Shown: piece by piece, positions 5,590 to 63,498 of the stretch
Layout of the letters: the number at the start of each line of letters is the position of its first letter
Position numbering within the stretch: position 1 is the stretch's first letter
Assembly (NCBI GenBank): GCA_943354165.1
Contig: CALRBH010000001.1
Span: 80,828 to 144,827 of the forward strand
Source: Candidatus Uhrbacteria bacterium RIFOXYB12_FULL_58_10
GTDB lineage: Bacteria > Patescibacteriota > Patescibacteriia > UBA9934 > GWF2-40-263
Direction: 5' to 3'
DNA length: 64,000 bases
Notes under the pieces: model-generated
Told to the model about the DNA's origin: nothing
Database searches by the model: none
What the model saw: only the letters and a program-made list of their open reading frames with translations
Position numbers and translations under genes: made by a program

Positions 5590-6030
5590 ATGGCAGATCT
5601 AGCGTTCAACAAGCGGGCCGCATTCGATTACGACCTTCTTGAAAAACTTGAGGGCGGGTTAAAGCTGACCGGGCCGGAAGTGAAGTCGGCGAAGGCTGGG
5701 CACGTGCAATTTAAGGGGGCGTTTCTACATGTGCAGAAGGGAGAGCTGTGGCTTAAGAATCTCCACATCTCCAAATACGTTCCGGCGGGGGAGCAGCTGC
5801 TCTATAATCCAACGCGTGATCGGAAGGTGCTTGTCCACAAGCGGGATATTGCTCGGCTCACCGGAAAAACGCATGCGGACGGATTGACATTGGTGCCAAT
5901 TTCGGTGTATCTTCGCAGGAATCTCGTGAAGCTTTCCTTCGCCCTCGCGCGCGGAAAAAAGCTGTTCGAAAAGAAGGACGCGATCAAGAAACGCGATCTC
6001 GACAGGGAAGTCCGCCGCGGCGAGGCGTAG
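5590..6030 (+). CDS. smpB: SsrA-binding protein
   Basis: NKRAAFDY, GLKLTGPEVKS, PTRDRKVLVHKR, GLTLVP, ARGKK..KRD; adjacent to ssrA. Confidence 0.97.
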   Translation: MADLAFNKRAAFDYDLLEKLEGGLKLTGPEVKSAKAGHVQFKGAFLHVQKGELWLKNLHISKYVPAGEQLLYNPTRDRKVLVHKRDIARLTGKTHADGLTLVPISVYLRRNLVKLSFALARGKKLFEKKDAIKKRDLDREVRRGEA

Positions 6031-6115
6031 TTAGTAGTTAGTAGATAGTAGTTAGTAGAGTTGGTTGGAAAATTTTCCTACTTACTACTAACTACTTACT
6101 ACTAACTGCTAACGC
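6026..6115. repeat. inverted heptamer tandem arrays, empty element
   Basis: Units GTAGTTA GTAGTTA GTAGATA GTAGTTA GTAG (6027-6058); central palindrome GGAAAATTTTCC; units TTACTAC TAACTAC TTACTAC TAACTGC (6082-6109). Confidence 0.95.
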
Positions 6116-19975: not shown

Positions 19976-21198
19976 CCGTCCTTCAAGCGCATAAATTTTA
20001 TTTTCCACGCGGCGGGGCGGAGACGTATCTCTTCGCGCTGTCCGAATATTTAGCGTCGCGCGGGTCAACGGTCGTTCCGTTCGCGATGCAACATCCGGGG
20101 AATCGGCAAACTCCATATTCGCACTATTTCCCTCGGTTCGTTCCTACGGAAAAAGTGAAGATGTCGCCGGCGGGATTGCGTACCGTAGGCCGGATGTTTT
20201 ATAGCTTCGAATCTAAGCGCCAGATGGAGCGATTGTTACGGGACGTCCCCATCGACGTCGCCCATATCCATAATCTGTACACGCAGCTGTCCCCATCGAT
20301 CCTTACTCCGCTCCGGAAGAGAAAGATTCCGACGGTGATGACGGTGCATGATTATCACCTGGTGACTCCGCACTATGCACTTCCGCTTGCCGGGCAGGCC
20401 GTGGACGTTTCTCGTGTGGGAGCATTGCGCGCGGCGCAGACGAAGTTTCATAAGGACTCAATGGCCGCAAGTTTTCTGCAAGCCGCATCTTATCGATTCA
20501 CCCGCCGCTGGAGATTTTATGATCGTGCCATTTCGCTCTTCATCGCTCCGAGTGAATTCATGGCGGCAAAACTGCGCGCGTCCGGATATGACAAGGATCG
20601 CATTCGCGTAATCCATTACGGCATCGACACGCGGACGATCGAACCTCGGTTCGGACACGATGGATATTTTCTGTTCGTCGGAAGGCTCTCGGAAGAGAAG
20701 GGGGTCGATACGGTGCTTGAGCTTGCGCATCGACTTCCGGATCTAAAGTTTAAGATTGTCGGGACCGGGCCAGATGAGGCGTTATTGCACTCCGTTGGCG
20801 ATCGACTTCCGAACGTCGAGTTCATGGGATACCAGCAAGGCCAGCGGTTGCGGGATCTGTACCTTGGTGCCCGGGCGGTATTAGTGCCTTCCAGGTGGGA
20901 GGAGCCTTCCGGTCTGGTTTTGCTTGAGGCCCAGGCCTGTGGAAAACCTGTGATTGCGAGCCATGCCGGTGGCATCCCGGAGGCCATGGAAGACCGCAGG
21001 AGCGGGTTTCTGGTCCCACCGCTTGATATCCACGCCTGGACCGAGGCCGTGCTGCGCCTCGCCTATGACGACCGGTCACGCGAAAAGATGGGCAGGGACG
21101 CCAGAACCCTTATGGAAGACCGGTTTTCGCTCAGGGCCCATTACGAGGCTGTGGAGCATGTTTATGCTGAGGCAATACGATTAGGGGGTAGTGCGTAG
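19972..21198 (+). CDS. glycosyltransferase family 4
   Basis: GGAE, FVGRLSEEKG, PSRWEEPSGLVLLEA..GKPVIAS..GGIPE. Confidence 0.93.
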   Translation: MTVLQAHKFYFPRGGAETYLFALSEYLASRGSTVVPFAMQHPGNRQTPYSHYFPRFVPTEKVKMSPAGLRTVGRMFYSFESKRQMERLLRDVPIDVAHIHNLYTQLSPSILTPLRKRKIPTVMTVHDYHLVTPHYALPLAGQAVDVSRVGALRAAQTKFHKDSMAASFLQAASYRFTRRWRFYDRAISLFIAPSEFMAAKLRASGYDKDRIRVIHYGIDTRTIEPRFGHDGYFLFVGRLSEEKGVDTVLELAHRLPDLKFKIVGTGPDEALLHSVGDRLPNVEFMGYQQGQRLRDLYLGARAVLVPSRWEEPSGLVLLEAQACGKPVIASHAGGIPEAMEDRRSGFLVPPLDIHAWTEAVLRLAYDDRSREKMGRDARTLMEDRFSLRAHYEAVEHVYAEAIRLGGSA

Positions 21199-21215
21199 TG
21201 TGTAGGGGGTAGGAA
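21181..21215 (+). repeat. G-rich heptamer half-array overlapping a stop codon
   Basis: TTAGGGG GTAGTGC GTAGTGT GTAGGGG GTAGGAA. Confidence 0.75.
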
Positions 21216-38715: not shown

Positions 38716-40858
38716 TCATATCAAACCTGAACACGGTGATCGCCCCGTTATCGATCGCGAACCAGTCGTCGGCGATGTTCTTTGAGGTCTCCACGATGCG
38801 GTTGCTCTGCCACCAGTACTCGTTTACGGCAGAGAAGACGAATTCTACGGGAGACTGTACGCACGTCGGGGAGGCGTCGCATTGTGCGTTCAGAAGTTTT
38901 GCTGCTTCCTCAGCGATCTCGCGGGACGGGGCGTCGTTCATCTTGAGGAAGAGGGAATAGAGCTCGCCACCGGTTGGGATCGGATAGAAGAATGCGTCGC
39001 CATAGTAGCGGGTGAAGCCGAGGGTACGGACCGCCGCCGCGGAAACCGTCTGGTTGGCGAGGACCGCATAGGGCCTGCCGCCCGCCGCGCGGTCGATCTC
39101 GTAGACCGCGTTCACATCGCTCTGCGAGGTGTTGAAGGCGCGGCCACGTTCGTGGGCGTCGTTCCGTGGATAGGCCATGTACAGGAGGGAGGTCGCGGCT
39201 CCGGCTATGAGCACGATGCTCCCGATGCGCATGAGGAGACCGCGGTGTTGCGCGCGCACAAGAAGCGTTCCGAGGATGGCGAGGAACCCCGGGGCCGCAA
39301 AGAAAACAGCGAGCGGGATCAGACGCTGCGCGTAGTTTTGGCGTTCGTAATCTATCAGGAACGAGAAGTCCACGGCGGTCGAAAGCAGTAAATAGTTCAC
39401 AAGAAGGATTCCTGCGACGGCGATGCCGGGGAAGAGCGCGCGGCGCCACGGTTTCTTAACGACAAACGTCACGAAGGCCGCACACAGGATGAGCGGAACC
39501 ATGTTCTTGCCCACCAGATATGCGGCGTCGAGAAGCGGGCGGAATCCGTTTTTCAGGAACAGGCCGAGGTTGAGCGAAGCGATGAGGGTCGTTGGATTGA
39601 GGCGCGAAAGGTCGAGCCCGGTGCCTGTGTGGGCGAGGAGGGCGTTCGCGATAAACGACGCCGGCAACAGCATCGCTCCTGTGACGATGATGACGATACG
39701 GAAGGCTTGCGCGAGTCTGGGTGTGCGCGAACGCGTTGGATCGCTCAAGAGGATGCAGACGTAGAGCAGGGTGGGAATCCCGGCGATCGGATGAATGGCA
39801 CAGGCGGCCACGGCGGGAATAAGAAGCATGAACGGCCGCGGGCGTTCCTTGCCCGCAAGAGCGGGGAGTGAGGCGAGAACGGTAGCGAGCGCGAGGAGGT
39901 TGGCGATCCCTTGGGGTGTGGTTGGAATCAGTGTGACGAATGGGAGCAGAAGCAATCCCGCCGTTCCAGCCATGGCCGCTCGTCGATCAGGGAGGATATG
40001 CGAGAGTCCTAGATACGCAAGCGCCGGCAAAAGGAGAGCGGCAAGAATTGGGAGCAGCCACGGATCAAGTACGTCGACGGGAACACGAAAGGCCATCGAG
40101 ATGATTGTTTCGAAGGCGTAGGCTCCCGCATAATACAGCGGCTTTGGAGAAATGGTTCCGTGATCGATGATGTGTGTGACGGTCGCACGATGAAGAAACG
40201 GATCGAATCCGTAGCCGATGGGAAATAGGATGATGCCCGCGCCAAGCACGGTGACGATGAGTCCCGAAAGCAGCATCAACGACATCCATTTTTCGCGTCC
40301 ACGGACGAGGAGGGTCACGACTCCTATCGATGCAAGAAAGAATGCGGCGAGCGCGCCTGCCGTCCCGGCGGTCCAGGCGGTACGTACGCTTTCCGCGGTG
40401 GCAAGCGCGGCGAGGGTGTGGAACGTAAAGGCAAGTGCCGCCATCACTCCGGCACTTACGAGCAGAACTGGTCCCGGAACCCGGTGCGCGGACGCAGGCA
40501 TTCGATCATGCCGTCGCGCGATGAATCCGCGAGGCACGTTTCTCGCGAGGAGGGCCGTGAGCGGAACGCTGAGCGCGACGAATCCAATCGCCATGTCTTT
40601 GGTGAAGGGAAACAGATAATACCAGGCGGCTCCTATGATAAGGATTCCGCCAAGGGTGATCAACATGCCGGCCCCTGTGCGCAACAGAGGGGATTCTTCA
40701 GGGGCAACACGGGTTCCAAGGAGCCACCCCATGGCGAGGAGCCATACGCACGCAAGGACAGCTCCAAGCGCCAGCGGGCCTCCATAAAATGCGTTTATGA
40801 GGAAAACCCCTAGAAAAACAACAGAAATTATGGTACGTTCTACATGAGGGAACCGCAT
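38696..40858 (-). CDS. large multi-pass membrane protein (GT-C-like topology)
   Basis: Many TMs; GYGFDPFLHRAT loop; start chosen at MRFPH after a TACACT box. Confidence 0.75.
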   Translation of the reverse strand: MRFPHVERTIISVVFLGVFLINAFYGGPLALGAVLACVWLLAMGWLLGTRVAPEESPLLRTGAGMLITLGGILIIGAAWYYLFPFTKDMAIGFVALSVPLTALLARNVPRGFIARRHDRMPASAHRVPGPVLLVSAGVMAALAFTFHTLAALATAESVRTAWTAGTAGALAAFFLASIGVVTLLVRGREKWMSLMLLSGLIVTVLGAGIILFPIGYGFDPFLHRATVTHIIDHGTISPKPLYYAGAYAFETIISMAFRVPVDVLDPWLLPILAALLLPALAYLGLSHILPDRRAAMAGTAGLLLLPFVTLIPTTPQGIANLLALATVLASLPALAGKERPRPFMLLIPAVAACAIHPIAGIPTLLYVCILLSDPTRSRTPRLAQAFRIVIIVTGAMLLPASFIANALLAHTGTGLDLSRLNPTTLIASLNLGLFLKNGFRPLLDAAYLVGKNMVPLILCAAFVTFVVKKPWRRALFPGIAVAGILLVNYLLLSTAVDFSFLIDYERQNYAQRLIPLAVFFAAPGFLAILGTLLVRAQHRGLLMRIGSIVLIAGAATSLLYMAYPRNDAHERGRAFNTSQSDVNAVYEIDRAAGGRPYAVLANQTVSAAAVRTLGFTRYYGDAFFYPIPTGGELYSLFLKMNDAPSREIAEEAAKLLNAQCDASPTCVQSPVEFVFSAVNEYWWQSNRIVETSKNIADDWFAIDNGAITVFRFDMTTPRSQ

Positions 40859-40897
40859 ATGGTCAGAGTGTACCGTGTGCACGTCTCCTAGTCACTC

Positions 40898-41470
40898 ATG
40901 CGCAATCCATTAACCCCTTATCCGCACGACCGGCTCATGGCGGCTCTCGTGCTGCCGTTTATCCCCAAGTGGGTGACGCCAAACATGGTCACCATTTTTC
41001 GGTTCCTGCTTATCCCGTTCGTCGTCTGGCGGATCTATCTCGGGGATTACGCCACAGGACTTCCCTTGTTCGTATTCGCGGCTTTTACAGACGTCATTGA
41101 CGGTTCCGTCGCAAGGTTGCGCAATCAAGTCACGACTTGGGGAACGTTCTACGATCCACTCGCGGACAAGCTTCTCATCGCCCCCGTCGCCCTACTCGTG
41201 GTGACACGTCACGCGTCATTCGACCTCGCGCTCGTGATGGCCCTTTTTGAAATATTGATCGGGATCGGTGCCGTAGTATGGAGGCGTCGCGGCCAGCAGG
41301 TGAGTGCGAATAATTACGGAAAAACAAAAATGGTGTTGCAGGTCGTGGGCGTTTCCCTGCTGATCATCTCCGTTCTGTTCTCCGTTCCCCTTGCCGCCAA
41401 TCTAGGAGTGCTGCTTCTGTTCGCCTCCATTGGGTGTGCCGTGGTAAGCCTGTTCACGTATGGGATTTAG
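40898..41470 (+). CDS. CDP-alcohol phosphatidyltransferase (PgsA-like)
   Basis: TPNMVT.FR and DVIDGSVAR...GTFYDPLADK signature. Confidence 0.92.
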   Translation: MRNPLTPYPHDRLMAALVLPFIPKWVTPNMVTIFRFLLIPFVVWRIYLGDYATGLPLFVFAAFTDVIDGSVARLRNQVTTWGTFYDPLADKLLIAPVALLVVTRHASFDLALVMALFEILIGIGAVVWRRRGQQVSANNYGKTKMVLQVVGVSLLIISVLFSVPLAANLGVLLLFASIGCAVVSLFTYGI

Positions 41471-43124
41471 CAAGCCGGCCGCAACGGCTCTTGTCGTTTG
41501 CGTGGCCATCGTCGCGCTGCTCGGTTCTTTTTCGCTGTTTACGAACGAGCGCACGTTCGTCTCTCCGGATGAAAATGCCAATTATTTTTTTACACACACC
41601 TTTTTTCAGACGGGGAGGCTTTCCGCTCATGAGTCGCTGGGCGCGGACTTGGACGATGCCTTGCATCCACGTTCCATGGTTTCGCGTGAAGGGTCCCTCA
41701 TGCCCGTAAGTTTTCTTGGATTGCTCGTCACGTATGGTGCGGTCGCCAAGCTTTTTGGAATGGGGATCGTGCCTTTTCTTACACCCTTTCTGTTTGTGTG
41801 CTCCATTTTTGCGTTCCGTGCGCTCATGAACCGCCTGTTCGACCGGGATACGGCGCTCGTGGCCACTGTGTTGTATGCGTTCCATCCAGCCATGTGGTAT
41901 TACGCCGCCCGCGCGATGATGCATAACGTGCCATTTACCGTGCTCCTCGTGTTCGCGGCGTACGTGCTCGTGTGCAAGCCGTTCGCCCATAAGTTTTCCA
42001 AGGATCGTTTCGCGGCCTTTGCGGACGCTGGACTTTCTGGCCTGCTGGTGGGAACGGCGCTTTTTTTCCGTACGTCCGAGATCATCTGGATGTTTCTCGC
42101 GGTCGTCGTCGCGCTTGTCGCGTCACGCGTGCGGTTTACGTCGCGTCGCGTAGTGGTATTTGTCTTCGGCGTTGTTCTCGGCCTCGTTCCCATGCTGTTC
42201 TTCAACGCCTCCACCTACGGATCCCCGTTTACGTTCGGGTATACCGTGACTCCGCTTTCCGGCAGCTCGAACCCCCTCCAACTCCCCCTCCGAGAGGGGG
42301 AGGGTTCGATGGCGATGCCTGAGGTGGATCCGCCGGAACGGATCGGGGCGTTTCCGTTTGGCCTCCACCCGCGTGCAACGCTTGTGCATCTTTCGGAATA
42401 TGGATTCGGGCTGTTTTGGTGGCTCACGATCCTCGCGGCCGGCGGGATGATCATCTTGCTGCAGTCGCGTGACGCATCGCCTGAGCAGAATCAGCTGCGC
42501 AAGGCGTACGGCGCGTTCTTTATCGTCTCGGCCGGCTATCTCGCGCTCATGTATGGGAGTTGGACCATCCGGGACAATCCGGACCCCACGGCCATCACCA
42601 TCGGCAATTCCTACGTGCGCTACTGGCTGCCGGCGTACGTGTTGTCCGTTCCGCTCGCGGCCGTCTGCATCATGTGGATTTCCCGGCGACTGCTCACTCC
42701 TGCGCGCCGAGCGCTTGTGGCGAGCGCTCTTACGCTCATGTGCGTAGCCCTCAGTGTCGCTACGGTGTTTTACACGAAAGGCGATGGGCTGATCGACGCG
42801 CGGAAGACGCTCGCGGAAACCGCTTCCATCCGTGGGCAGCTGCTCAACCTCACGGAATCCGATTCGGTGATCATCGCGGACCGGGCGGACAAGTTCCTGT
42901 TTCCGTACCGACGGGTCGTGACGCCGTTGCGCGATGAGCACACATACTCGCTCATGCCGCGCATCGTCCTGCGCGTTCCGCTCTACTATTACGGCGTGAC
43001 GTTCCCGGAGAAGGACTTGGAATACTTGAACACCGAAAAGCTTCCGCCCCTCGGGCTGCAGATTGAGGAGCTTCGATCGTTCAAGGCGGAAACGCTTTAC
43101 CGCATTTATCGCTTGCCTTCATGA
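41460..43124 (+). CDS. GT-C fold glycosyltransferase (ArnT/PMT-like)
   Basis: SPDE first-loop motif, multiple TMs, YVRYWLP. Confidence 0.75.
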   Translation: MGFSKPAATALVVCVAIVALLGSFSLFTNERTFVSPDENANYFFTHTFFQTGRLSAHESLGADLDDALHPRSMVSREGSLMPVSFLGLLVTYGAVAKLFGMGIVPFLTPFLFVCSIFAFRALMNRLFDRDTALVATVLYAFHPAMWYYAARAMMHNVPFTVLLVFAAYVLVCKPFAHKFSKDRFAAFADAGLSGLLVGTALFFRTSEIIWMFLAVVVALVASRVRFTSRRVVVFVFGVVLGLVPMLFFNASTYGSPFTFGYTVTPLSGSSNPLQLPLREGEGSMAMPEVDPPERIGAFPFGLHPRATLVHLSEYGFGLFWWLTILAAGGMIILLQSRDASPEQNQLRKAYGAFFIVSAGYLALMYGSWTIRDNPDPTAITIGNSYVRYWLPAYVLSVPLAAVCIMWISRRLLTPARRALVASALTLMCVALSVATVFYTKGDGLIDARKTLAETASIRGQLLNLTESDSVIIADRADKFLFPYRRVVTPLRDEHTYSLMPRIVLRVPLYYYGVTFPEKDLEYLNTEKLPPLGLQIEELRSFKAETLYRIYRLPS

Positions 43125-44596
43125 AGTCCATCCGTGCGATTCAGGCTTTGATCATTCTTGTCCCCGTCATCCTGTTCGGCTGGCTGCTTTGGCAGGAGCT
43201 CGTCCCGACGGGCACGTTTATCATGGAGCGAGTCGCAGGAACGGCCTCGCCGTTTATTGATCGATTGCTTCCGGACGGACGCGTGCAGCTCGCTGATCCT
43301 CATTCCGCTCGTCCTACGGATACCATCACGGGCGACCCTGCGTTCTTTTTCGTCCATCCGCACCGCGGATTTGAATCCGGCGAGGTGGAAATTCGTTTTC
43401 AGAATACGGGCGTGCCCATCGTTGAGTTTGGTGGACTGGCGCGCGAAGAAGGACAGGTCTATGACCTCACGCCCATTCAGAACCGGCTGATCGACACCTC
43501 CACATGGACGCGTCATGAAGAACAAGGAATCACTCTTCTTGAGCGCGAGCCGAAGTTCGCGACGATCGCTGATTTTCTTGCGAACCCTCCGCCGCGCCAT
43601 GAGATTTCCACCTATCACTATCGACTCGCCCGCGCGTACCGGATGCCCGGGTATGTCGCACAAGGAGGCACCAGGAACATCGACGTTTCTTTGCGCGGAT
43701 TTCATGAATTCGAAACGTACCTGAAGAACGAGCCGCTTTCGTTCACGTTTTCTTATACGGATGAGAACCGCGGGGAAGGGCCGGACCCGTTTGAGGTGAT
43801 CGTCTTCAATGAGAACAACGAAGCCGTGACGGACGTCCATGTGGCGGATGACGGAAATACAGGCGATGATGCGCGGCCTTCCAGAATACGCACCGCGACC
43901 GTTTCGCTCGCATTGGTTCCGGAAGGGACGTACAAACTTGAGATACGGGTTGGCACGGACATTTTTTTGAGATCGATTCAGACAAGCGCGAACAAGCTCG
44001 TCGCGATGAACACCATCATTCTCGGAGATGAGGTTGGCTACAAGCCCGTGCCGTCGAGCGTGCGGATGTGGACGGAGTCGAAGACGCTCGCGTTTGAGAC
44101 GACGCACGCGGAAGGGGTGCAGTCGGTGGAGGTTGGGGCGAACGCCGTTGCTCTCGCGACGCCATTTACGCGCGTGGAATACGACGTGAAGGAATCCGGC
44201 GTCGTGCGCATTACGGTTCCGAAGGGCGATGCGCGCGTGTTCGGCGACGGACATTATGCGTTTGCCCCGGACCAGTTTTTCAATCCGGATCCTGTACGTC
44301 TGAACGCCACCACGAATCTTGATCGGCTCGGGGTAAACTATGTCATCGCCGCCTATACTCCGCCTGTGAAGGACCCTTCGACAAGCTCAGGGCAGGGAGG
44401 GGAATGGCTCGTGGCGCGCGTTCCGTTTAACACAGAAGGACTCGTTCAACTGAACGGCACCTGGAAATTTGCGTTCTCGCTTCCGGGAATCGAGCGGACA
44501 GGCGGCGCGGTGAACGTCCGATCCGTCTCGTTCACCATGCACCGGGCTCCTCTCACCATCTCTGTATTGATGACCCTGATCCGTTCGCGCTTATGA
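43121..44596 (+). CDS. hypothetical membrane-anchored extracellular protein
   Basis: N-terminal TM; ATGA overlaps on both sides. Confidence 0.8.
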   Translation: MKSIRAIQALIILVPVILFGWLLWQELVPTGTFIMERVAGTASPFIDRLLPDGRVQLADPHSARPTDTITGDPAFFFVHPHRGFESGEVEIRFQNTGVPIVEFGGLAREEGQVYDLTPIQNRLIDTSTWTRHEEQGITLLEREPKFATIADFLANPPPRHEISTYHYRLARAYRMPGYVAQGGTRNIDVSLRGFHEFETYLKNEPLSFTFSYTDENRGEGPDPFEVIVFNENNEAVTDVHVADDGNTGDDARPSRIRTATVSLALVPEGTYKLEIRVGTDIFLRSIQTSANKLVAMNTIILGDEVGYKPVPSSVRMWTESKTLAFETTHAEGVQSVEVGANAVALATPFTRVEYDVKESGVVRITVPKGDARVFGDGHYAFAPDQFFNPDPVRLNATTNLDRLGVNYVIAAYTPPVKDPSTSSGQGGEWLVARVPFNTEGLVQLNGTWKFAFSLPGIERTGGAVNVRSVSFTMHRAPLTISVLMTLIRSRL

Positions 44597-44793
44597 AACC
44601 GTTCACGCTTCGTCTCATCGCTACGTTGTTCCGCGTAAGTGCCCTCTCGTACGTTTTATTCTGGGCGGCAGATGCGATGAGGCCAGGGTTTGTGTCACGA
44701 TACGTCTCCGTCCACTTGTTCGGGTTGCTTGCGCTTGTGTTCGGAACCCTTTTTGCGGTATATGGAGAGGACGTTGGGGGTCGTAGTAAGTAG
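44593..44793 (+). CDS. small membrane protein
   Basis: 66 aa, two hydrophobic segments around PGFVS; stop codon lies inside the heptamer array. Confidence 0.65.
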   Translation: MKPFTLRLIATLFRVSALSYVLFWAADAMRPGFVSRYVSVHLFGLLALVFGTLFAVYGEDVGGRSK

Positions 44794-44816
44794 TTAGTAG
44801 ATAGTAGTTAGTAGGT
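44782..44816 (+). repeat. left heptamer array of the four-helix-bundle element
   Basis: GTAGTAA GTAGTTA GTAGATA GTAGTTA GTAGGT directly before ATG. Confidence 0.95.
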
Positions 44817-45182
44817 ATGGATGATGATTTGCGCAGGGATAAACGTTCATATAAAGATTTGACGGTTTGGCAGAAGTCCATGGATTTGGTTGTGCTTATC
44901 TACGAACTGACAAAAGATTTTCCTGCCGATCAGAAATTTAGTCTTGTGAATCAGATGCAGCGTGCGGCTGTCTCTGTGCCGTTGAATATCGCGGAAGGTT
45001 CACGTAGACGAAGTGAAGCAGATAATATTCGTTTTCTCCGCATCGCGTTTGGATCAGCGTCTGAACTCGAAACCCAGATCCTTATCTCTCAACGTCTCCG
45101 GTTCGGTCATTCTGAGAAATATTCAGGCATAAAAAGCTTGCTTATAGAGGTTCTCAAGATGCTAAACAAAATGTCAGAATGA
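44817..45182 (+). CDS. four helix bundle protein (23S rRNA IVS-protein / Avd-like family)
   Basis: SYKDLTVWQKSMDL..IY..TKDFP...FSLVNQMQRAAVSVPLNIAEG..R...FLRIAFGSASELETQI. Confidence 0.95.
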   Translation: MDDDLRRDKRSYKDLTVWQKSMDLVVLIYELTKDFPADQKFSLVNQMQRAAVSVPLNIAEGSRRRSEADNIRFLRIAFGSASELETQILISQRLRFGHSEKYSGIKSLLIEVLKMLNKMSE

Positions 45183-45187
45183 CCGTA

Positions 45188-45222
45188 ACCCTACTTTCTA
45201 CTTACTACTATCTTCTAACTAC
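45188..45222 (-). repeat. right (inverted) heptamer array
   Basis: ACCCTAC TTTCTAC TTACTAC TATCTTC TAACTAC. Confidence 0.9.
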
Positions 45223-45228
45223 ACCCAT

Positions 45229-45645
45229 ATGTCTGACTGTATTTTCTGTAAAATCATTGCGGGGGACATTCCTGCCATAAAGATTCATGAGGACGAGCAG
45301 TGCATTGCATTTCTCGATATCCATCCAGTGAACCCTGGGCACACGCTGATCGTTCCGAAGGAACACCATGCAAATTTTCTTGAGACGCCTAAGGAACTCG
45401 TGGCGGTGATCATGGCGCTCGGACAGAAGCTTTCGCCGGCCATCCTTAAAGCCGTCGGTTCCGATTCGTTTAATTTTTCTACGAACAACGGCCGCGCAGC
45501 AGGACAGTTGATTGCTCATACGCATTTTCACCTGATCCCGCGCTTTCCGGCAGACGGCCATAAGATGTGGCATGGGTCTGACGAGCATCAGGATTTTGCG
45601 GCGATGGCCACGAAGATTCGAGAGGCAGTAGGCAGTGGGGAGTAG
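45229..45645 (+). CDS. HIT family hydrolase
   Basis: CIFCKII, AFLDIHP..PGHTL..PK, GQ...HTHFHLIPR. Confidence 0.95.
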   Translation: MSDCIFCKIIAGDIPAIKIHEDEQCIAFLDIHPVNPGHTLIVPKEHHANFLETPKELVAVIMALGQKLSPAILKAVGSDSFNFSTNNGRAAGQLIAHTHFHLIPRFPADGHKMWHGSDEHQDFAAMATKIREAVGSGE

Positions 45646-45654
45646 GAAGTAGAT

Positions 45655-46593
45655 ATGAAAATACTTGTTACTGGCGGAGCGGGATTCATTGGATCCGCGT
45701 TCGTGCGCTACATCATCCGGGAACATGCGAACGACGAGGTGATCACCCTCGATGCGTTGACGTACGCGGGGAATCTCGAAAATCTTTTGGACGTGAAGGA
45801 CAATCCGCGTCACGTGTTCGTGAAAGGGGACATCTGCGACCGGAAACTCGTAAGCGATTTCGTGAAGAAATGTGACGCGGTGGTGCACTTCGCCGCGGAG
45901 ACGCATGTTGACCGATCGATTGTCGGAGCGAGCGAGTTTGTCCGGACGAACGTCGTCGGCACCCTTTCGATTCTTGATGCCGTGAAGGAACATGGAAAGC
46001 GACTGCATCATATTTCAACCGATGAGGTGTTCGGTGCCCTCGGACCCAAAGATCCGCCGTTCAACGAGAACACGCCGTACGCTCCGCGCAATCCGTACAG
46101 CGCTTCGAAGGCCGCGGCCGATCATCTTATTCGTTCGTACGTCATTACCCATGGCGTGAAGGCGACGATTTCGAACTGTTCGAATAATTACGGCCCCTAT
46201 CATTTTCCAGAGAAGATGATTCCGCTGTTCATTTCAAATCTGCTTTCCGGAAAGAAGGTGCCGGTGTATGGCAAGGGCGATCAGATGCGTGACTGGATTT
46301 ACGTGGAAGATCACGTTCGCGGCGTGGACCTTGCGCTGCGCAACGGCAAGATCGGCGAAACGTATCTCTTCGGCGGTGACGGAGAAATTACGAACCTCGA
46401 GCTCACGAAGAAGCTTCTCACATTGTGTGGACGCGATGAGGATGCGATTGAATTCGTCGCGGACCGTCCTGGCCACGATCGACGCTATGCGGTCGATTAT
46501 TCGAAGGCGAAACGAGAACTCGGTTGGGAACCGAAGATCAGCTTGGATGAAGGATTGAAGCGGACCGTGAAGTGGTTTAAGGCGAAGCTATGA
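45655..46593 (+). CDS. rfbB: dTDP-glucose 4,6-dehydratase
   Basis: TGGAGFIGS, DALTYAGN, HFAAETHVDRSI, ISTDEV, PYSASKA, DRPGHD.RY. Confidence 0.97.
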   Translation: MKILVTGGAGFIGSAFVRYIIREHANDEVITLDALTYAGNLENLLDVKDNPRHVFVKGDICDRKLVSDFVKKCDAVVHFAAETHVDRSIVGASEFVRTNVVGTLSILDAVKEHGKRLHHISTDEVFGALGPKDPPFNENTPYAPRNPYSASKAAADHLIRSYVITHGVKATISNCSNNYGPYHFPEKMIPLFISNLLSGKKVPVYGKGDQMRDWIYVEDHVRGVDLALRNGKIGETYLFGGDGEITNLELTKKLLTLCGRDEDAIEFVADRPGHDRRYAVDYSKAKRELGWEPKISLDEGLKRTVKWFKAKL

Positions 46594-47423
46594 AGATCCT
46601 GATTTTCGGAAAGGGATTTGTGGGCAATCGCTGCGCGTCCGCCTGGCCGGATGCGGTGCTTTCGGACGTACGCGTCTCGAATAAAGAGGAAGCGCTCGCG
46701 GAAATCAAGCGCGTACAGCCTGATGCGGTGTTGAATGCCGCTGGTGTGAAAGGGAAACCGAACGTGGACTGGTGCGATACGCATCAGATGGAAACCATTC
46801 TCGGCAACACGCTCGAACCGATCGTTCTCGCGCAGGCGTGTCAGGAAGTGGGCGTCTATCTTCTGCACATCGGATCCGGTTGCATCTTTTACGGTGACTC
46901 TCCGCATCCGGACAAGACGTGGCGTGAAGACGATTTCGGGAATCCGCGCCCTACATATAGTCGCGCTAAGTGGGCGGCGGATCTTGTGCTGTCGACATTG
47001 CCGAATGTGGCCATCGCGCGCATTCGCATGCCCATCGATCATGTTCGGAATTCCGGAAACCTTTTGCAAAAGCTCGCGGCGTACCCGAAGGTCATCGACG
47101 TCGAAAATTCGATTACGGTTGTAGATGACATGGTGTCCGTTTTCCGTCAGCTCATGGAAAAGAAGGCGCCGGGGATTTTTCATGTCACGAATCCAGGCAC
47201 AGCTCGCCACCGCGAGATTCTTGGATTGTATAAAGACCTTGTTGACCCGAATCATTCCTGTGAATGGATTTCTGAAGAGGATCTCGTGGTCCAGGGTCTG
47301 GCAACAAAGAAGCGTTCAAATAATTTTCTCGCTTCAACGCGCCTTGCCGAGGTTGGCATCGCGATGCGACCCGTGAAAGAGGCGTTGCGGGATACGGTTG
47401 AAAAATACGCGCGGGCCAAGTAA
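46590..47423 (+). CDS. NDP-4-keto-6-deoxyglucose 3,5-epimerase/4-reductase-like (NRS/ER, RmlD fold)
   Basis: NAAGVKGKPNVDWCDTH, IGSGCIF, YSRAK, RIRMPI. Confidence 0.8.
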   Translation: MKILIFGKGFVGNRCASAWPDAVLSDVRVSNKEEALAEIKRVQPDAVLNAAGVKGKPNVDWCDTHQMETILGNTLEPIVLAQACQEVGVYLLHIGSGCIFYGDSPHPDKTWREDDFGNPRPTYSRAKWAADLVLSTLPNVAIARIRMPIDHVRNSGNLLQKLAAYPKVIDVENSITVVDDMVSVFRQLMEKKAPGIFHVTNPGTARHREILGLYKDLVDPNHSCEWISEEDLVVQGLATKKRSNNFLASTRLAEVGIAMRPVKEALRDTVEKYARAK

Positions 47424-47435
47424 GGTTTGCCCGTT

Positions 47436-48521
47436 ATGAAAGCCCTGATTGCGGCGGGAGGCCGGGCCACGCGCCTGCGTCCCATCACCTGGACCATCAA
47501 CAAGCACCTGATCCCGATGACCAACCGGCCCATGTTGGCGCACGCGATCGACAAGATCGTGGAGGCGGGGATCACGGACATCATCGTGAGCGTGAATCCC
47601 GGCGAGACGGATTCCATGAGAGCGGCGCTCGGCGACGGGTCCGCATGGGGAGCCCGACTTACGTATCTCGAGCAGCGGGGCGGAGCGCTCGGTGTCGCGC
47701 ACGTGGTCGCAAACGCGGAGGATCTTCTGCGAGGAGAGAAGTTTTTGTTTTATCTCGGCGACAACATTATTCTCGGCAGCCTCAAGAAGTTCGTCGACCG
47801 TTTTCTCGACGAAGAGCTCGACTGCATGCTCGCGTTCTCTCGCGTGAAAGATCCGCAGCGATTTGGTGTTCCAGAATTTGCTGAAGACGGAAAAACGTTG
47901 CTTCGCGTGATTGAAAAGCCGGCGCATCCGCCTTCGGACTTTGCCGTTACCGGCATTTATCTTTACAACGACCGCTACTTTGACGGGTTCTTTTCCATCA
48001 AGCCGTCCTCACGAGGAGAATACGAAATTTCCGATGTGAACTCCTGGTTCGTGGAGAACGGAAAGGTGGGTTATGAGGAAATTACCGGATGGTGGAAGGA
48101 TACCGGCACGCCGGACGCGCTTCTCGAAGGGAACGCGCTCATGATGGACGACATGCCGCGCGAGCAGTTCCGTGTGGACGTGGACGTTCCGGATTCCGCC
48201 CAGGTTCAAGGACTCGTGAAGATCGGCAAGGGAACCGTTATTGGCGAGAAGGTGCTTATTCGCGGGCCGGTCGTCATTGGCGAGCATTGTCAGATCGACA
48301 ACGCCTACATTGGTCCTCATACTTCCATTGGTGATGGCGCCTCCGTAAAAAATGCGGAAGTGGAACACTCGATCATTTTTCCAGGCGCCTCGATTGATAC
48401 CAAACGTCGCATCGTAAGCAGCCTTATCGGAAAAAACGCTATCGTACACGATGCCGTTCAGACCCTTCCGCGTTCAGGATCCAGACTGGTGATTGGGGAC
48501 AGTAGTTCCGTTGAGCTGTAA
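47436..48521 (+). CDS. rfbA: glucose-1-phosphate thymidylyltransferase, long form
   Basis: AAGGRATRLRPIT..NKHLIP, YLGDN, PSSRGEYEISD, WWKDTG; C-terminal hexapeptide domain. Confidence 0.92.
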   Translation: MKALIAAGGRATRLRPITWTINKHLIPMTNRPMLAHAIDKIVEAGITDIIVSVNPGETDSMRAALGDGSAWGARLTYLEQRGGALGVAHVVANAEDLLRGEKFLFYLGDNIILGSLKKFVDRFLDEELDCMLAFSRVKDPQRFGVPEFAEDGKTLLRVIEKPAHPPSDFAVTGIYLYNDRYFDGFFSIKPSSRGEYEISDVNSWFVENGKVGYEEITGWWKDTGTPDALLEGNALMMDDMPREQFRVDVDVPDSAQVQGLVKIGKGTVIGEKVLIRGPVVIGEHCQIDNAYIGPHTSIGDGASVKNAEVEHSIIFPGASIDTKRRIVSSLIGKNAIVHDAVQTLPRSGSRLVIGDSSSVEL

Positions 48522-49826
48522 TTATTGCAGGGCGCGCCGATAGACTCCCTGATCCCCATTTGTGCGGAAGAACCAGAGTTCACGGGCACGACGGTCAAAA
48601 CCGAGGGCGGTGGCCGATCCCTCGAATAATTTGAATGTCGCTCTTCCTTCCTGTGAGACGGTTTCAATGGCGGTCACAGCATGGTCATCTGCGTAAATGA
48701 TAGCGGCCCCTGAAGGGAGCCAGAGAATTTCGCGGAGCTCGCTTGAAACCCTCGTGAGGGTTTCAGAACTATTTTTCTCAAGCGAATAGACGTTCAGCTC
48801 ATGTCCATCTCCGTTGGTGGCGAGGAACTTGGCGTCCGGCGACCAGCTTGTGAGGGAGGTTTGGGAAGAAAAAAGAATGGGGCGATCGGATCCGCGCGCA
48901 TCCAGGAGAATGACGCGTCTCGTGCCGGTCTCCTTCAGCAGGGCATAGCCGGACGGAGCCCACTCAAACGACCAGGTGCCGCGTGGGATCACGGCAAGTG
49001 GAGTGATGGTGGTTCCTTCGAGCCTTGATACAGCTTCTCCGGACGGGGAGGATTCCAAAATAAGAAAGCCGGATCCGGATCCCATGGCAGCTTTTACGCC
49101 GACGGGGAACGTTCGGCGCGTTTCCGATTCAAGATCCACGAGAACGAGCGTCTTTGGCTCATGGACGAATATGCGGGATTCTGAAGTCGGATCAAATTCC
49201 GCCGCAAGACTGGTGTGGAAAGAGGCGGTAAGTCCCGTGTCGATCCGCACGAATGTTGTTTCCGTTTTTGTATGGATGCGCAATAGGTGTCCTTCTGGAT
49301 GAAAGGAAAGCGCAAGATCACTGGCGCTCAACGCCGGAATGCGCGACAGGAGCGTTTTGTTTTCACCAAATTCATTGAGCGTCCAGAGCTCGACCCATCC
49401 GGCCTCCGTGCGCGCTACGATGAATGTTCCGATCGTTGCGGCTCCTGCATGGATGAATCCTGATTCGATTTTGGTGGCGGGAGCGGTAAGGAACAGAGGA
49501 ATACCTTCAAGAAAAACGGTTTGTCGCGCCACGACAGAAAGCGTTCTCTCCCAGGGGAAATAGCCGGATTTTTTCAGGAGCACCTCATGCGCTCCGGCGG
49601 GAATCGCATCAATCACAGACGGAGTGCGGGAGCCGATGAGCCTTCCGTCAATGGAAATCTCCGCGGAACGGGGGAGGGTAGATACGGAGATAAGGCCGGT
49701 CTGGACGATCCGCGCTGTTTTCCAATTTATGCGGAAACCAGCGGTATAGAGGACGACTGCGGGTGCCACCATGAAAAAACCCAACACAAAGAGGGTATAC
49801 AGCACGCGCCGGGTCCAACGATTCAT
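48522..49826 (-). CDS. PEGA-domain membrane-anchored protein
   Basis: N-terminal TM; TG.ISV.TLP..A.I.IDG...TP...GAHEV.L.K.GY.PW; propeller-like C-terminus. Confidence 0.85.
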   Translation of the reverse strand: MNRWTRRVLYTLFVLGFFMVAPAVVLYTAGFRINWKTARIVQTGLISVSTLPRSAEISIDGRLIGSRTPSVIDAIPAGAHEVLLKKSGYFPWERTLSVVARQTVFLEGIPLFLTAPATKIESGFIHAGAATIGTFIVARTEAGWVELWTLNEFGENKTLLSRIPALSASDLALSFHPEGHLLRIHTKTETTFVRIDTGLTASFHTSLAAEFDPTSESRIFVHEPKTLVLVDLESETRRTFPVGVKAAMGSGSGFLILESSPSGEAVSRLEGTTITPLAVIPRGTWSFEWAPSGYALLKETGTRRVILLDARGSDRPILFSSQTSLTSWSPDAKFLATNGDGHELNVYSLEKNSSETLTRVSSELREILWLPSGAAIIYADDHAVTAIETVSQEGRATFKLFEGSATALGFDRRARELWFFRTNGDQGVYRRALQ

Positions 49827-49865
49827 AATGGCTCCAGCATACGGAAAATATGCCATTCTGCAAAT

Positions 49866-49932
49866 CCTCCTTCGCTCTGCGGAGCTTCGGAGGACAGGCC
49901 GGCCTGCCAGCCGAAGCCTTAGCGAAGGCTGG
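49866..49932. repeat. pair of inverted REP-like palindromes
   Basis: CCTCC-TTCGCTCTGCGGAGCTTC-GGAGG-ACAGG, and on the minus strand CCAGCC-TTCGCTAAGGCTTC-GGCTGG-CAGG. Confidence 0.8.
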
Positions 49933-49970
49933 TTGTCCGTTTCGTACAATCCCGATATGATGCCATGCAT

Positions 49971-51212
49971 ATGTTGTCACCTCTTGAAAAGCATGCGCGT
50001 AGCTCTTCGCGTTCGCTTGTCACGCTCAGTCTTCTTCTTGCGGTCGCCTTTTCTTTTTCTGTCGGCGTGCTGCTTGGGCATGAACAGGGGGCGCGTGCGT
50101 CCGTGCCGGACGGAGAAGGCCGTGTGATTCATATTGGGGATGCGGCGCCTTCGCTTGGGGAAGACGTCGATTTCCGCCAGTTCTGGAACATCTGGAATCT
50201 GGTGAAGGAGTCCTACGTGCACCAGCCCGTTTCGGACAAGGAATTGTTTTACGGCGCGCTGAAGGGCATGGTGGCAGGAACCGGTGATCCGTACACTGTG
50301 TATTTTGACCCTGAGGAGGCGGGGGATTTCGCGGCGAACCTCGACGGCAAGTTCGAAGGTATCGGCGCGGAGATTGGCATCAAGGAAAACCAGCTTCAGA
50401 TCGTGGCCCCCCTTCCGAAGACTCCGTCGGAAAAGGCCGGTATCAGGAGTGGAGACCGCATTTACAAGATCGATGAGTCCGAGACCACTGGCATGTCCGT
50501 GGAAAAGGCAGTCACGCTTATCCGCGGGGAAAAAGGGACGCCTGTCACGCTTACCATCGGCCGAGAAGGAGTTGACGAGCTTCTTGTCATCAAGATCATA
50601 CGAGACACCATCAAGATCGACAGCGTGAAGTATGAGAAGGACGGGACTATCGCGATCATCTCCGTGTATACGTTCAATGACGACACGAACTCGCTGTTCG
50701 TCGATGCGGTGAACAAGGCACTGGCAGATGGTGCGACCGGCGTCATCCTCGATCTCCGCGGGGATCCGGGTGGCCTGCTTTCCTCCGCCATCAACCTCGC
50801 CTCCGTCTGGGTCGGCTACGATCCTGTACTCATTGAACGCACGCAAGACAAGTCGCAGACGTTCCGGGGCATCTCCGCCCCAAGGCTGAACACCGTTCCT
50901 ACCGTCGTGCTCGTAAACGGTGGGAGCGCATCCGCCTCCGAAATTCTCGCCGGAGCCCTGCAGGATTACGGTCTTGCCACCCTCGTAGGGGAACAGACGT
51001 TCGGGAAGGGGTCCGTACAGGACTATCAGCAGCTGCCAGACGGTTCCGCGGTAAAGATTACCGTGGCCGAGTGGTTCACCCCTAAGGGCCGCGGGATCAA
51101 TAAGACCGGGATCACCCCGGATGTCGTCGTTCCGTTCACTCAAGAAGACTTCCATGCCAAACGCGATCCACAAAAGGCCAAGGCCCTCGAGATCCTCCGG
51201 ACGAAGCGATAA
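49971..51212 (+). CDS. ctpA: S41 C-terminal processing peptidase
   Basis: DPYTVY, GIGAEI, PDZ domain, LDLRGDPGG, NGGSASASEI, TFGKGSVQ. Confidence 0.93.
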   Translation: MLSPLEKHARSSSRSLVTLSLLLAVAFSFSVGVLLGHEQGARASVPDGEGRVIHIGDAAPSLGEDVDFRQFWNIWNLVKESYVHQPVSDKELFYGALKGMVAGTGDPYTVYFDPEEAGDFAANLDGKFEGIGAEIGIKENQLQIVAPLPKTPSEKAGIRSGDRIYKIDESETTGMSVEKAVTLIRGEKGTPVTLTIGREGVDELLVIKIIRDTIKIDSVKYEKDGTIAIISVYTFNDDTNSLFVDAVNKALADGATGVILDLRGDPGGLLSSAINLASVWVGYDPVLIERTQDKSQTFRGISAPRLNTVPTVVLVNGGSASASEILAGALQDYGLATLVGEQTFGKGSVQDYQQLPDGSAVKITVAEWFTPKGRGINKTGITPDVVVPFTQEDFHAKRDPQKAKALEILRTKR

Positions 51213-62439: not shown

Positions 62440-63399
62440 ATGAAGCTCTCGCCTATTGCGATCTTGGTTGCAATTTGCGTGAGCCTCGCCGCTCTTGCGG
62501 TTTGGGCCATGCCTCAAGTGGAGCCGCGCTGGGGCGTGACGTTTTCCACCAAGTATTCTCGCGAGCTCGGGTTGAATCCGGAAACCGTGTTTTGGGAGGT
62601 GGTGAACGACCTGAACGTCCGTGCAATCCGGTTGCCCGTGTATTGGGATGAGGTGAATCCACAATTCGACGTTTGGAATTGGCAGCCGTACGACCATCTG
62701 GTTGAAATGGCCGATGAGAAGGGGGTCGCCCTCACGCTTGCGGTGGGAATGAAGACGCCGCGCTGGCCGGAATGCCATGTTCCAGAATGGGCCGCCTCCA
62801 TTTCCTCCATCGATTCATTCGACAAGCAGCGATCCGCCTACATCGATGCGGTTATTAAACGATACGACGGACACGTCTCCGTGGAGCGGTATCAGATCGA
62901 GAATGAGCCGTTGTTTCCGTTTGGTGAGTGTCCGGGTTCCAGCATCGAGCGGCTGGAAGAAGAAGTGCATCGTGCGAGGCTTGTGACGACGAAGCCAATA
63001 CAAATCACGGCGAGCGGAGAATTCGAGCTCTGGAGCCGTGTGGCCCCTCTTGTCGATGTCCTTGGCGTTTCCCTTTATCGCATTTCCTGGAACGATGCAT
63101 ACGGTTTTTTTCGCTATCCCATTCCCGCCGCGTATTACCGATTACGGGCTATGGGTATCCAGCGTCCGGTTATTATTTCCGAGCTTCAGGCCGAGCCGTG
63201 GTTTCCCGTCTCCATTGAGAGTCACCCCGCCTCTTATTGGGCGCAGCTGTTCACGTCCAATGATTTCCGCGACCAGGTCCGCTTTGCCCGCCGGACCGGA
63301 TTGTCCGAAGCGTATCTTTGGGGGGTGGAGTGGTGGTACTATTTGCGTGCTCACGGATATCCAGAGCTTTGGGACGCTGCGCGTCCTCTTTGGCGGTAA
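62440..63399 (+). CDS. clan GH-A-like glycoside hydrolase
   Basis: IRLPVYW, PRWPECH.P.W, QIENEP (acid/base), ISELQAEPW (nucleophile). Confidence 0.8.
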   Translation: MKLSPIAILVAICVSLAALAVWAMPQVEPRWGVTFSTKYSRELGLNPETVFWEVVNDLNVRAIRLPVYWDEVNPQFDVWNWQPYDHLVEMADEKGVALTLAVGMKTPRWPECHVPEWAASISSIDSFDKQRSAYIDAVIKRYDGHVSVERYQIENEPLFPFGECPGSSIERLEEEVHRARLVTTKPIQITASGEFELWSRVAPLVDVLGVSLYRISWNDAYGFFRYPIPAAYYRLRAMGIQRPVIISELQAEPWFPVSIESHPASYWAQLFTSNDFRDQVRFARRTGLSEAYLWGVEWWYYLRAHGYPELWDAARPLWR

Positions 63400-63498
63400 G
63401 GGCGGTTAGGGTTGTAAGGGGAGTAAGGGATTTTCCTTTCGCTCTATTCGTTCTGTCGCCCTTACCGTCCATTACCACCCTTACAACCCTTACCACCC
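63392..63498. repeat. inverted nonamer arrays, empty element
   Basis: GGCGGTAAG GGCGGTTAG GGTTGTAAG GGGAGTAAG ... CTTACCGTC C ATTACCACC CTTACAACC CTTACCACC. Confidence 0.92.

Follow-up and report, generated by a model that had tools for sequence, protein, structure and literature searches.

A PF05635 gene between complementary heptamer arrays as the probable gene-carrying master copy of hairpin repeats in a small bacterial genome

The question raised by the locus studied here is why a small protein-coding gene stands exactly between two tandem repeat arrays that are complementary to each other. The locus lies in a 64,000-nt stretch of DNA from Candidatus Uhrbacteria bacterium RIFOXYB12_FULL_58_10 (the window, to which coordinates without a contig name refer). 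Its gene belongs to the PF05635 (S23p) family, discovered in the intervening sequences (IVSs) of rRNA. An earlier note, made from the letters of the window, had proposed that arrays and gene form one unit, either an IVS-like insert in an mRNA or a transposase-free element whose protein recognises or spreads the arrays. As a whole, this interpretation was partly supported. The element is a 440-bp insertion cassette in which the PF05635 gene is enclosed by two complementary five-unit arrays of GTAG heptamers, and by its features it is probably the gene-carrying master copy of a family of hairpin repeats. Because gene-less copies of the hairpin occur dozens of times in the genome, the gene likely encodes a protein that recognises, and perhaps spreads, the repeat.

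The five GTAG cores upstream of the gene were read at 44783, 44790, 44797, 44804 and 44811; their units span 44783-44816, and the fifth GTAGNNN unit abuts the ATG at 44817. The open reading frame (ORF) comprises 121 codons and is closed by the TGA at 45180-45182. The complementary NNNCTAC units begin at 45188, 5 nt past the stop codon, and end at 45222, the fourth core being CTTC instead of CTAC. The inverted heptamer arrays reported in the earlier note, five units at the ATG and five complementary ones 5 nt past the stop, were confirmed by the sequence, by an inverted-repeat search and by Tandem Repeats Finder (TRF). The inverted-repeat search placed the arms at 44783-44815 and 45190-45222 (33 nt, 79% complementary, 374 nt between them), and the inner 25 nt were 92% complementary. 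With TRF, a period of 7 with 4.6 copies was determined upstream and a period of 7/14 downstream. The four-core GTAG pattern, with at most one mismatch, matched 11 times in the window and 0 times in each of 100 dinucleotide shuffles. The features of the locus, together with two further members of the repeat family in the window, are collected in Table 1.

Table 1. Coordinates of the cassette, its neighbours and two further GTAG-type repeats in the window.
Feature	Position	Strand	Basis or remark
Truncated small membrane-protein gene, 66 codons	44593..44793	+	Stop TAG 44791-44793 inside the 5' array; ORF list, relatives, alignment
5' arm, five GTAGNNN heptamers	44783..44815	+	Ends 1 nt short of the ATG
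PF05635 / TIGR02436 four-helix-bundle gene (S23p), 121 aa, pI 9.5	44817..45182	+	Pfam, TIGR02436, PDB match, model
3' arm, complement of the 5' arm in five units (one core CTTC)	45190..45222	+	Last base 6 nt upstream of the HIT start codon
HIT-family gene, intact downstream neighbour, outside the element	45229..45645	+	PF01230 E 2.4e-23; ATG 45229
Gene-less GTAG-family hairpin (array, 19-nt loop, complementary array)	6027..6113	.	TRF, core pattern
Lone GTAG-like array, about 4 units	45623..45652	+	Spans the HIT stop codon; its end is 2 nt short of the rfbB-like start

The gene product was matched to PF05635 with an E value of 2.5e-38 (131 bits, cut-off 33.8) and to TIGR02436 with 119.8 bits (cut-off 24), and the match with the protein of PDB entry 2gsc had an E value of 1.9e-24. 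The structure model (pLDDT 91.1) was a four-helix bundle with helices at residues 2-32, 37-63, 67-93 and 99-119. In the Foldseek comparison the model was closest to 2gsc (TM 0.84/0.89, rmsd 0.6) and 2rld, followed by Avd in 8ub7 and 4dwl (TM 0.73-0.81); the structural kinship with Avd claimed in the earlier note was borne out by this fold match. The PDB entries 2gsc and 2rld contain five chains each. According to excerpts of PMC4990558 the protein of 2gsc is a homopentameric toroid, and according to excerpts of bioRxiv 10.1101/2023.10.23.563531 Avd is a pentamer with a specific RNA element as its binding partner in the particle of diversity-generating retroelements (DGRs). For the protein of the cassette, a homopentameric ring is predicted by analogy with these relatives. 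Among 16 diverse sequences Q46, S53, N57, E60 and E83 were invariant and R49 nearly so; as inferred from their spacing, these residues would lie on one face of a helix, with one residue on the next helix.

The history of the locus was determined by comparison with related genomes. The order of a 491-aa gene, the small membrane-protein gene, HIT and rfbB was conserved in the relatives. The earlier note had pointed to the region upstream of HIT and rfbB as the place where empty sites might be seen, and these were found: a PF05635 gene was present at the locus in 0 of 19 relatives, HIT came next after the small membrane-protein gene in 15 of the 19, and in 18 of the 19 the empty site contained no hairpin. 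The frame of the small membrane protein was 119-148 codons long in 16 of the 19 relatives compared with 66 codons in the window's genome (G000), where according to the alignment the protein ends about 55 residues early and the cassette occupies the place of the missing codons. Of the earlier statement that the unit stands between two ordinary genes, the downstream part held, the HIT gene being intact; the upstream part did not, the membrane-protein gene having been cut short. A second cassette of the genome, its arms built of 9-mers, separates rpoC from yebC. A PF05635 gene was found there in 0 of 29 relatives, and in 10 relatives the spacing between rpoC and yebC was 3-157 nt. Since the relatives show empty sites at both tested loci, the cassette represents a derived insertion. 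In protein sequence the closest homologue, 65% identical and enclosed by GTAGCGT arms, was situated on contig C48 of its genome, the 491-aa gene of which was on contig C39.

Several observations at these junctions were made in addition. In one relative from another genus (G008, locus L091) the small membrane-protein gene had 73 codons, its product stopped at the same column of the alignment, and a short inverted repeat of the TTACGAA type came next; this repeat at the position of the cassette may indicate a hot spot or an old shared insertion. The 3' junction of rpoC was occupied by a 10-mer array in G018 (L193) and by a long 8-mer array in G008 (L207). An empty site in near-identical strains was also considered. 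Contigs X2-X5, compared with 43800-46200, gave apparent joints of 44814 to 45190/45191, and the candidate was rejected; these contigs carried gene-less GTAG hairpins from elsewhere, matching over 23-30 letters per side with 8-21 other letters between, and 44529-44771 was spanned by none of the contigs.

The window's genome comprises 852.5 kb in 24 contigs and is 98.4% complete; its ORFs were our own greedy longest-ORF calls (869 ORFs, 92% coding) and not an annotation. Six PF05635 matches were detected (C1:125680, C10:8801, C10:11318, C2:71601, C8:13515 and C18:6803). All six genes stand between an array and its complement, and each has a unit of its own: GTAGTTA, GGCGTTA, GGGTGGTAA, GGTTYGGGA, a GGGCAAG-type 10-mer and AAACGAC. 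Each of the six units was found elsewhere in the genome as well, as arrays or as hairpins. The six paralogues are all basic, with isoelectric points (pI) of 8.0-9.5, and share 26-54% of their residues, the pair with 7-mer G-type arms being 54% and the pair with 9-mer arms 51% identical. A score of at least 30 for inverted flank repeats was reached by 6 of the 6 PF05635 genes versus 8 of the 834 other ORFs. These eight were ordinary genes such as groES between separate hairpins, one gene between two terminators, and a GIY-YIG cassette. The groES gene (G000:C5:11431-11867) had a lone 9-mer array on one side and an entire 9-mer hairpin on the other; with arrays as dense as these, ordinary genes can look enclosed. 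At G000:C12:18654-18956 a 100-aa GIY-YIG-like ORF was observed between two copies of a GC-rich repeat of about 60 nt, which is a different type of small cassette.

In the whole genome TRF reported 297 arrays with periods of 5-12, and in the period scan period 7 was represented by 134 arrays and period 9 by 85, compared with 22 in a simulated genome. The six families contained 112, 56, 32, 26, 11 and 3 arrays when counted by TRF consensus units with at most two mismatches, a loose rule; the 9- and 10-mer families are degenerate and come out too small with strict core patterns, so that their sizes were taken from the consensus units. The strict GTAG pattern identified 102 arrays and 0 with the core reversed, and exactly four full cores were present in 76 of the 102. 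A GTAG arm, a loop of at most 60 nt and a CTAC arm followed one another in 45 pairs, and the opposite polarity in 0 pairs; the number of gene-less GTAG hairpins, at least 45, is a lower bound. For 42 of 44 GTAG pairs the loops were 2-50 nt long, and the single pair with a 378-nt loop was the cassette studied here. The cassette is the only gene-bearing member of the GTAG hairpin family in this genome.

When the GTAG elements were aligned and oriented, they shared one arm consensus of about 30 nt with identical spacer mismatches, in two orientations. Because of this common consensus and the same spacer mismatches, the elements are regarded as copies of a master sequence and not as products of local slippage. 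A MITE that arose from an autonomous element by internal deletion would be expected to have both ends in common with the gene-bearing copy and to show target-site duplications. The inner ends of the hairpins resembled those of the cassette: GGTT...AACC adjoined the cores, and two loops contained CCGTAAA[T/A]C where the cassette has CCGTAACC; these stretches are short. A rule by which one arm is the unit-wise complement of the other in the same order was also tried. In total, 20 hairpins fitted the same order better, 5 the pairing order, and 12 were tied; the rule was rejected because one asymmetric master in two orientations accounts for the hairpins.

The relatives sampled were 41 genomes of the same order, the window's genome included, and PF05635 was matched in 34 of them. 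In the relatives 69 further places were inspected; seven fragments and one short flank were excluded. The claim of the earlier note that arrays and gene are one unit gained support outside the genome: besides all six paralogues here, inverted flank repeats scoring at least 30 were determined for 49 of the 63 full-length genes of relatives, 35 of the 49 being clearly tandem. A cross-phylum scan (one genome per species, 8-sequence alignment) sampled 80 loci, one archaeon among them; judged by their record titles, they represent about 19 phyla. Of the 79 loci analysed, 49 scored at least 30 versus 2 of 390 controls, in which the flanks of a pair came from different loci. The repeats were tandem in 48 of the 49 cross-phylum positives, with a period of 7 in 39, 8 in 7 and 9 in 2. 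The enrichment of inverted arrays at homologous genes is strong, so that the earlier note withstood the refuting condition it had named for itself, and the inverted-array design is family-wide.

The units of the arms were compared between each protein and its nearest neighbour in another genome. The units agreed within two mismatches in 14 of 38 cases (expected 3.5; reached in 0 of 2000 shuffles), and the period was the same in 28 of 38 (expected 14.6; 1 of 2000 shuffles). Across phyla, the units agreed within one mismatch in 15 of 44 cases, with a null mean of 1.35 and a maximum of 10 in 1000 shuffles; the agreement includes 6 of the 27 neighbour pairs from different phyla. Some units were private. 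In G007 the TAGGAAK unit was confined to its cassette (3 of 3 matches) and AGGCAAK was found at its cassette and one other site; the 9-mer of the third cassette, GGWCNGAAA, had 58 matches over all ten contigs. None of these three units was present in the four other genomes searched. In G022 the TAGGT unit was observed at its cassette and at one site. The arms belong to the cassette and not to the host. Gene and arms are thereby shown to be inherited and transferred together; because kin share labels, the co-variation demonstrates such co-inheritance and co-transfer and not function.

The explanation favoured here, to which we assign a moderate probability, is that the cassette is the gene-bearing master of a hairpin family with at least 45 gene-less copies, and that its protein, predicted to form a ring, likely binds the arrays unit by unit and would in this way mark or guide the copying of the hairpin into gene junctions. 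The protein would form a five-part ring, as its solved relatives do, and the ring would bind its own array with one unit per protomer. The bound ring would then mark the element for copying, or protect it, and the hairpin would be copied into new gene junctions by cut-and-paste or copying enzymes supplied by the host. In the operon transcript the arms may pair and RNase III may cut the stem, by analogy with the Coxiella IVS. The arrays contained about 4-4.4 units at every period, with lengths of 30 nt for period 7, 35 for 8, 34 for 9 and 40 for 10 (223 arrays on 300 flanks); such a near-constant unit count is the expectation for a unit-counting oligomer, although the TRF threshold contributes to it.

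Several points weigh against this explanation. No nuclease, recombinase or polymerase domain was recognisable in the PF05635 protein, which is therefore unable to move DNA by itself, and no target-site duplication was evident when the sequence at the cassette was read. The genome of one relative (G001) had 33 GTAG-array matches and just two PF05635 matches, one with an E value of 1.9e-10, barely over the Pfam cut-off, and one of 2.4e-5, below it; the hairpins therefore persist, or spread, without a strong cognate gene. The co-variation of protein and unit is expected from co-inheritance alone, a functional link not being required, and related genomes are not independent samples. The suggestion of one unit per protomer draws on the homologues and on a unit count that is partly set by the score threshold of TRF.

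A wider proposal is possible, if doubtful. PF05635 proteins in general would be sequence-reading rings of five protomers, each bound to one unit of an array in a manner comparable to TRAP, a protein that reads spaced triplets; together with host enzymes the rings would spread their own hairpins. They would represent a transposase-free, protein-guided class of mobile elements, by which both the rRNA IVSs and the tandem heptamer arrays of many phyla would be explained.

A purely RNA-level IVS, which is compatible with the explanation above, was judged an unlikely account of the locus when taken alone. According to it, RNase III cuts the paired arms, frees or destroys the mRNA of the gene and splits the flanking messages, the protein being unrelated to the arrays. 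The imperfect stem predicted in the earlier note was obtained when 44770-45235 was folded as RNA: both arms paired together in the minimum free energy (MFE) and the centroid structures, the energy was -143.7 kcal/mol (z -3.86), and 0 of 100 shuffles were equally stable. An RNase III gene is encoded in the genome (126 bits). No promoter or terminator signal above chance was detected within 44300-45800, so that co-transcription across the cassette is plausible, and for the Coxiella IVS excerpts of PMC4990558 report RNase III cleavage of a terminal stem that comprises 28 bp and has tandem heptamers. However, the mismatches between the arms do not point to selection at the RNA level. In 56 cassettes, read on the sense strand, 1511 Watson-Crick, 50 G.U, 55 A.C and 108 other pairs were counted, and the corresponding values for 37 gene-less hairpins between co-directional ORFs were 916, 8, 17 and 85. 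As G.U mismatches do not outnumber A.C mismatches, these data give no support to selection for an RNA stem. The mismatches were mostly A/T transversions in the spacers, the cores being retained; the spacer mismatches are conserved among the copies and not compensated. The private unit of each paralogue, and a unit and period that track the protein tree, are left unexplained by this alternative. The orientation of gene-less GTAG elements relative to flanking co-directional ORFs was the same in 12 cases and opposite in 15, and as the element is nearly symmetric, these counts do not separate DNA-level from RNA-level action.

It is quite improbable that the protein is a domesticated regulator, to which the hairpins would serve as operator or RNA sites controlling the translation or termination of their neighbours, its own arms being autoregulatory. 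The positions of the hairpins are in line with this possibility. Gene-less hairpins occupy stop-to-start gaps. Of the 58 counted in five families, 23 lay between two forward ORFs (++), 14 between two reverse ORFs (--), 9 between convergent and 8 between divergent ORFs, 2 in ORFs and 2 at contig ends. Most of the hairpin ends were within about 20 nt of an ORF end, and many of the hairpins began on the upstream stop codon or a few bases from it, as judged from our ORF calls. The 5' arm of the cassette ends next to the start codon, and tandem heptamers are taken as regulatory in Beggiatoaceae (PMC4679880) and Geobacter metallireducens (PMC2700814) in the excerpts of these papers. In contrast, no start codon follows the 9 hairpins between convergent ORFs, a conserved gene is truncated by the element here, and some units are restricted to their own cassette. 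Furthermore, units and copy numbers turn over between genera: GTAG-array matches numbered 118 in the window's genome, 9-41 in seven relatives, 1-3 in six, and 0 in 27 of the 41 genomes.

That the gene is a passenger which entered the loops of hairpins already present in the host, so that the arms belong to the target, would fit the excess of gene-less GTAG hairpins over the single cassette and the seat of rRNA IVSs at hairpin loops (helix 45 in Coxiella, from excerpts of PMC4990558), but it is hardly credible given the units confined or nearly confined to their cassettes, the empty sites at this locus, which lack a hairpin in 18 of 19 relatives, the tracking of the protein tree by unit and period between phyla too, and the fact that no two of the six genes share a family (P about 2e-4 if landing were random in proportion to family size, a post hoc figure).

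The cassette, read as the gene-bearing master of its hairpin family, can be set beside several known systems. In some species 23S rRNA IVSs occur at helix 25. In Coxiella burnetii the IVS is situated in helix 45, and a stem of 28 bp carries the S23p ORF in its loop; the start codon is preceded by three tandem GACAGAT heptamers and a degenerate one, and the IVS is cleaved by RNase III. The details for C. burnetii are given in excerpts of PMC4990558, where an older suggestion is also cited that the IVS is a mobile element with the ORF serving mobility. The IVS-like layout claimed in the earlier note agreed with this description, in that a stem and tandem heptamers stand before the S23p start. 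As in an IVS, the terminal inverted repeats of the cassette form a stem that encloses an S23p ORF, its arms being paired in the folds. Common to both are the PF05635 family, a gene in the loop of a terminal stem of about 28-33 bp, and tandem heptamers directly before the start codon without a good ribosome-binding site. Unlike the Coxiella IVS as described in those excerpts, the cassette is not in a 23S rRNA helix: it is inserted between protein-coding genes, the small membrane-protein gene and the HIT gene, and no Rfam family reached the gathering score in 40000-50000. Both arms are full five-unit arrays, and dozens of gene-less copies and six paralogue-specific families are present in one genome.

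With Avd the protein shares the four-helix-bundle fold. It differs in its score of 23.7 bits with NF033474, for which the cut-off is 80, in the lack of an RVT_1 neighbour at the PF05635 genes, and in the presence of cassettes in 10 relatives without an RVT_1 match. Genome-wide, four RVT_1 reverse-transcriptase genes were observed in the 0.85 Mb (C3:20980, C15:7770, C19:8337 and C1:51276), and none of the four adjoins a PF05635 gene. A dependence of the arrays on reverse transcriptase was considered, as RVT_1 was matched in 8 of 8 genomes with at least 9 GTAG-array matches versus 19 of 33 others. The dependence was dropped in view of the 10 relatives with cassettes and no RVT_1 match and of the mutual relatedness of the genomes; the association of RVT_1 with GTAG arrays is a weak lead.

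In the repetitive extragenic palindromic (REP) systems, with their REPIN hairpins and REP-associated tyrosine transposases (RAYTs), a gene is flanked by inverted copies of a repeat, each repeat family has one such gene, and hairpins of the repeat without the gene are dispersed over the genome. The cassette resembles them in the repeat-flanked gene and the dispersed gene-less hairpins, of which at least 45 of the GTAG type have loops of at most 60 nt. Unlike in those systems, the flanked gene is PF05635 and not Y1, and the arms are tandem arrays of short units and not single palindromes. The Y1 transposase (PF01797) had no match in the genome at the completeness stated above, in agreement with the transposase-free character proposed in the earlier note; the element is therefore not a REP/RAYT system.

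Tandem heptamers have been described in other bacteria. TAACTGA sets in Beggiatoaceae, Cyanobacteria and Bacteroidetes are direct repeats with a single inverted case, according to excerpts of PMC4679880, and PMC2700814 reports for Geobacter metallireducens tandem heptanucleotides in groups of four or five, one class of five heptamers being drawn with its strand looping back on itself. Like the arrays studied here, these sets consist of two to six tandem 7-mers, mostly intergenic and near start codons. In both texts the terms 'four helix', 'S23' and 'intervening sequence' were absent and the PF05635 family was unmentioned. The literature search, for which subscription journals were largely out of reach, resulted in no description of the cassette outside rRNA or of a link to gene-less arrays.

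What is contributed here is a one-gene-one-family pattern seen within one small genome, units that are private to a cassette, tests for empty sites at two loci and the constant unit count. S23p/PF05635 proteins have been without an assigned function since their discovery in rRNA intervening sequences, and intergenic tandem heptamer arrays are likewise unexplained. The six paralogues with six units and hairpin families are a natural experiment, and both puzzles are joined in one proposal, a protein that recognises its own array. If mobile, the cassettes would be a small and widespread kind of insertion which shapes gene junctions, supplies stop codons and truncates genes in very small genomes.

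Some minor observations concern the repeat and protein types. The arrays of G001 consisted mostly of GTAGTGC and GTAGGGG units, many of them as hairpins, for instance at C7:27599-27657, and a few arrays of this sub-type were found in the window's genome too (window 21181-21212). A four-core pattern for a GAGTC 8-mer had 0 matches in five genomes, the pattern being too strict, as a known array has three full cores. A second protein sub-family was distinguished by ANYIEA in place of NIAEG (alignment A1: L068, L072, L075, L006); its upstream arms were mostly A/C-rich and not G-rich, and it includes the AAACGAC-armed paralogue of this genome. Within the window, the lone array at 45623-45652 was without a complementary partner nearby. 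At 63392-63498 a 9-mer hairpin was observed, with a GGCGGTAAG arm, a loop of about 30 nt and a CCCTTACCA arm, and its unit type is that of the arms around the PF05635 gene on contig C2.

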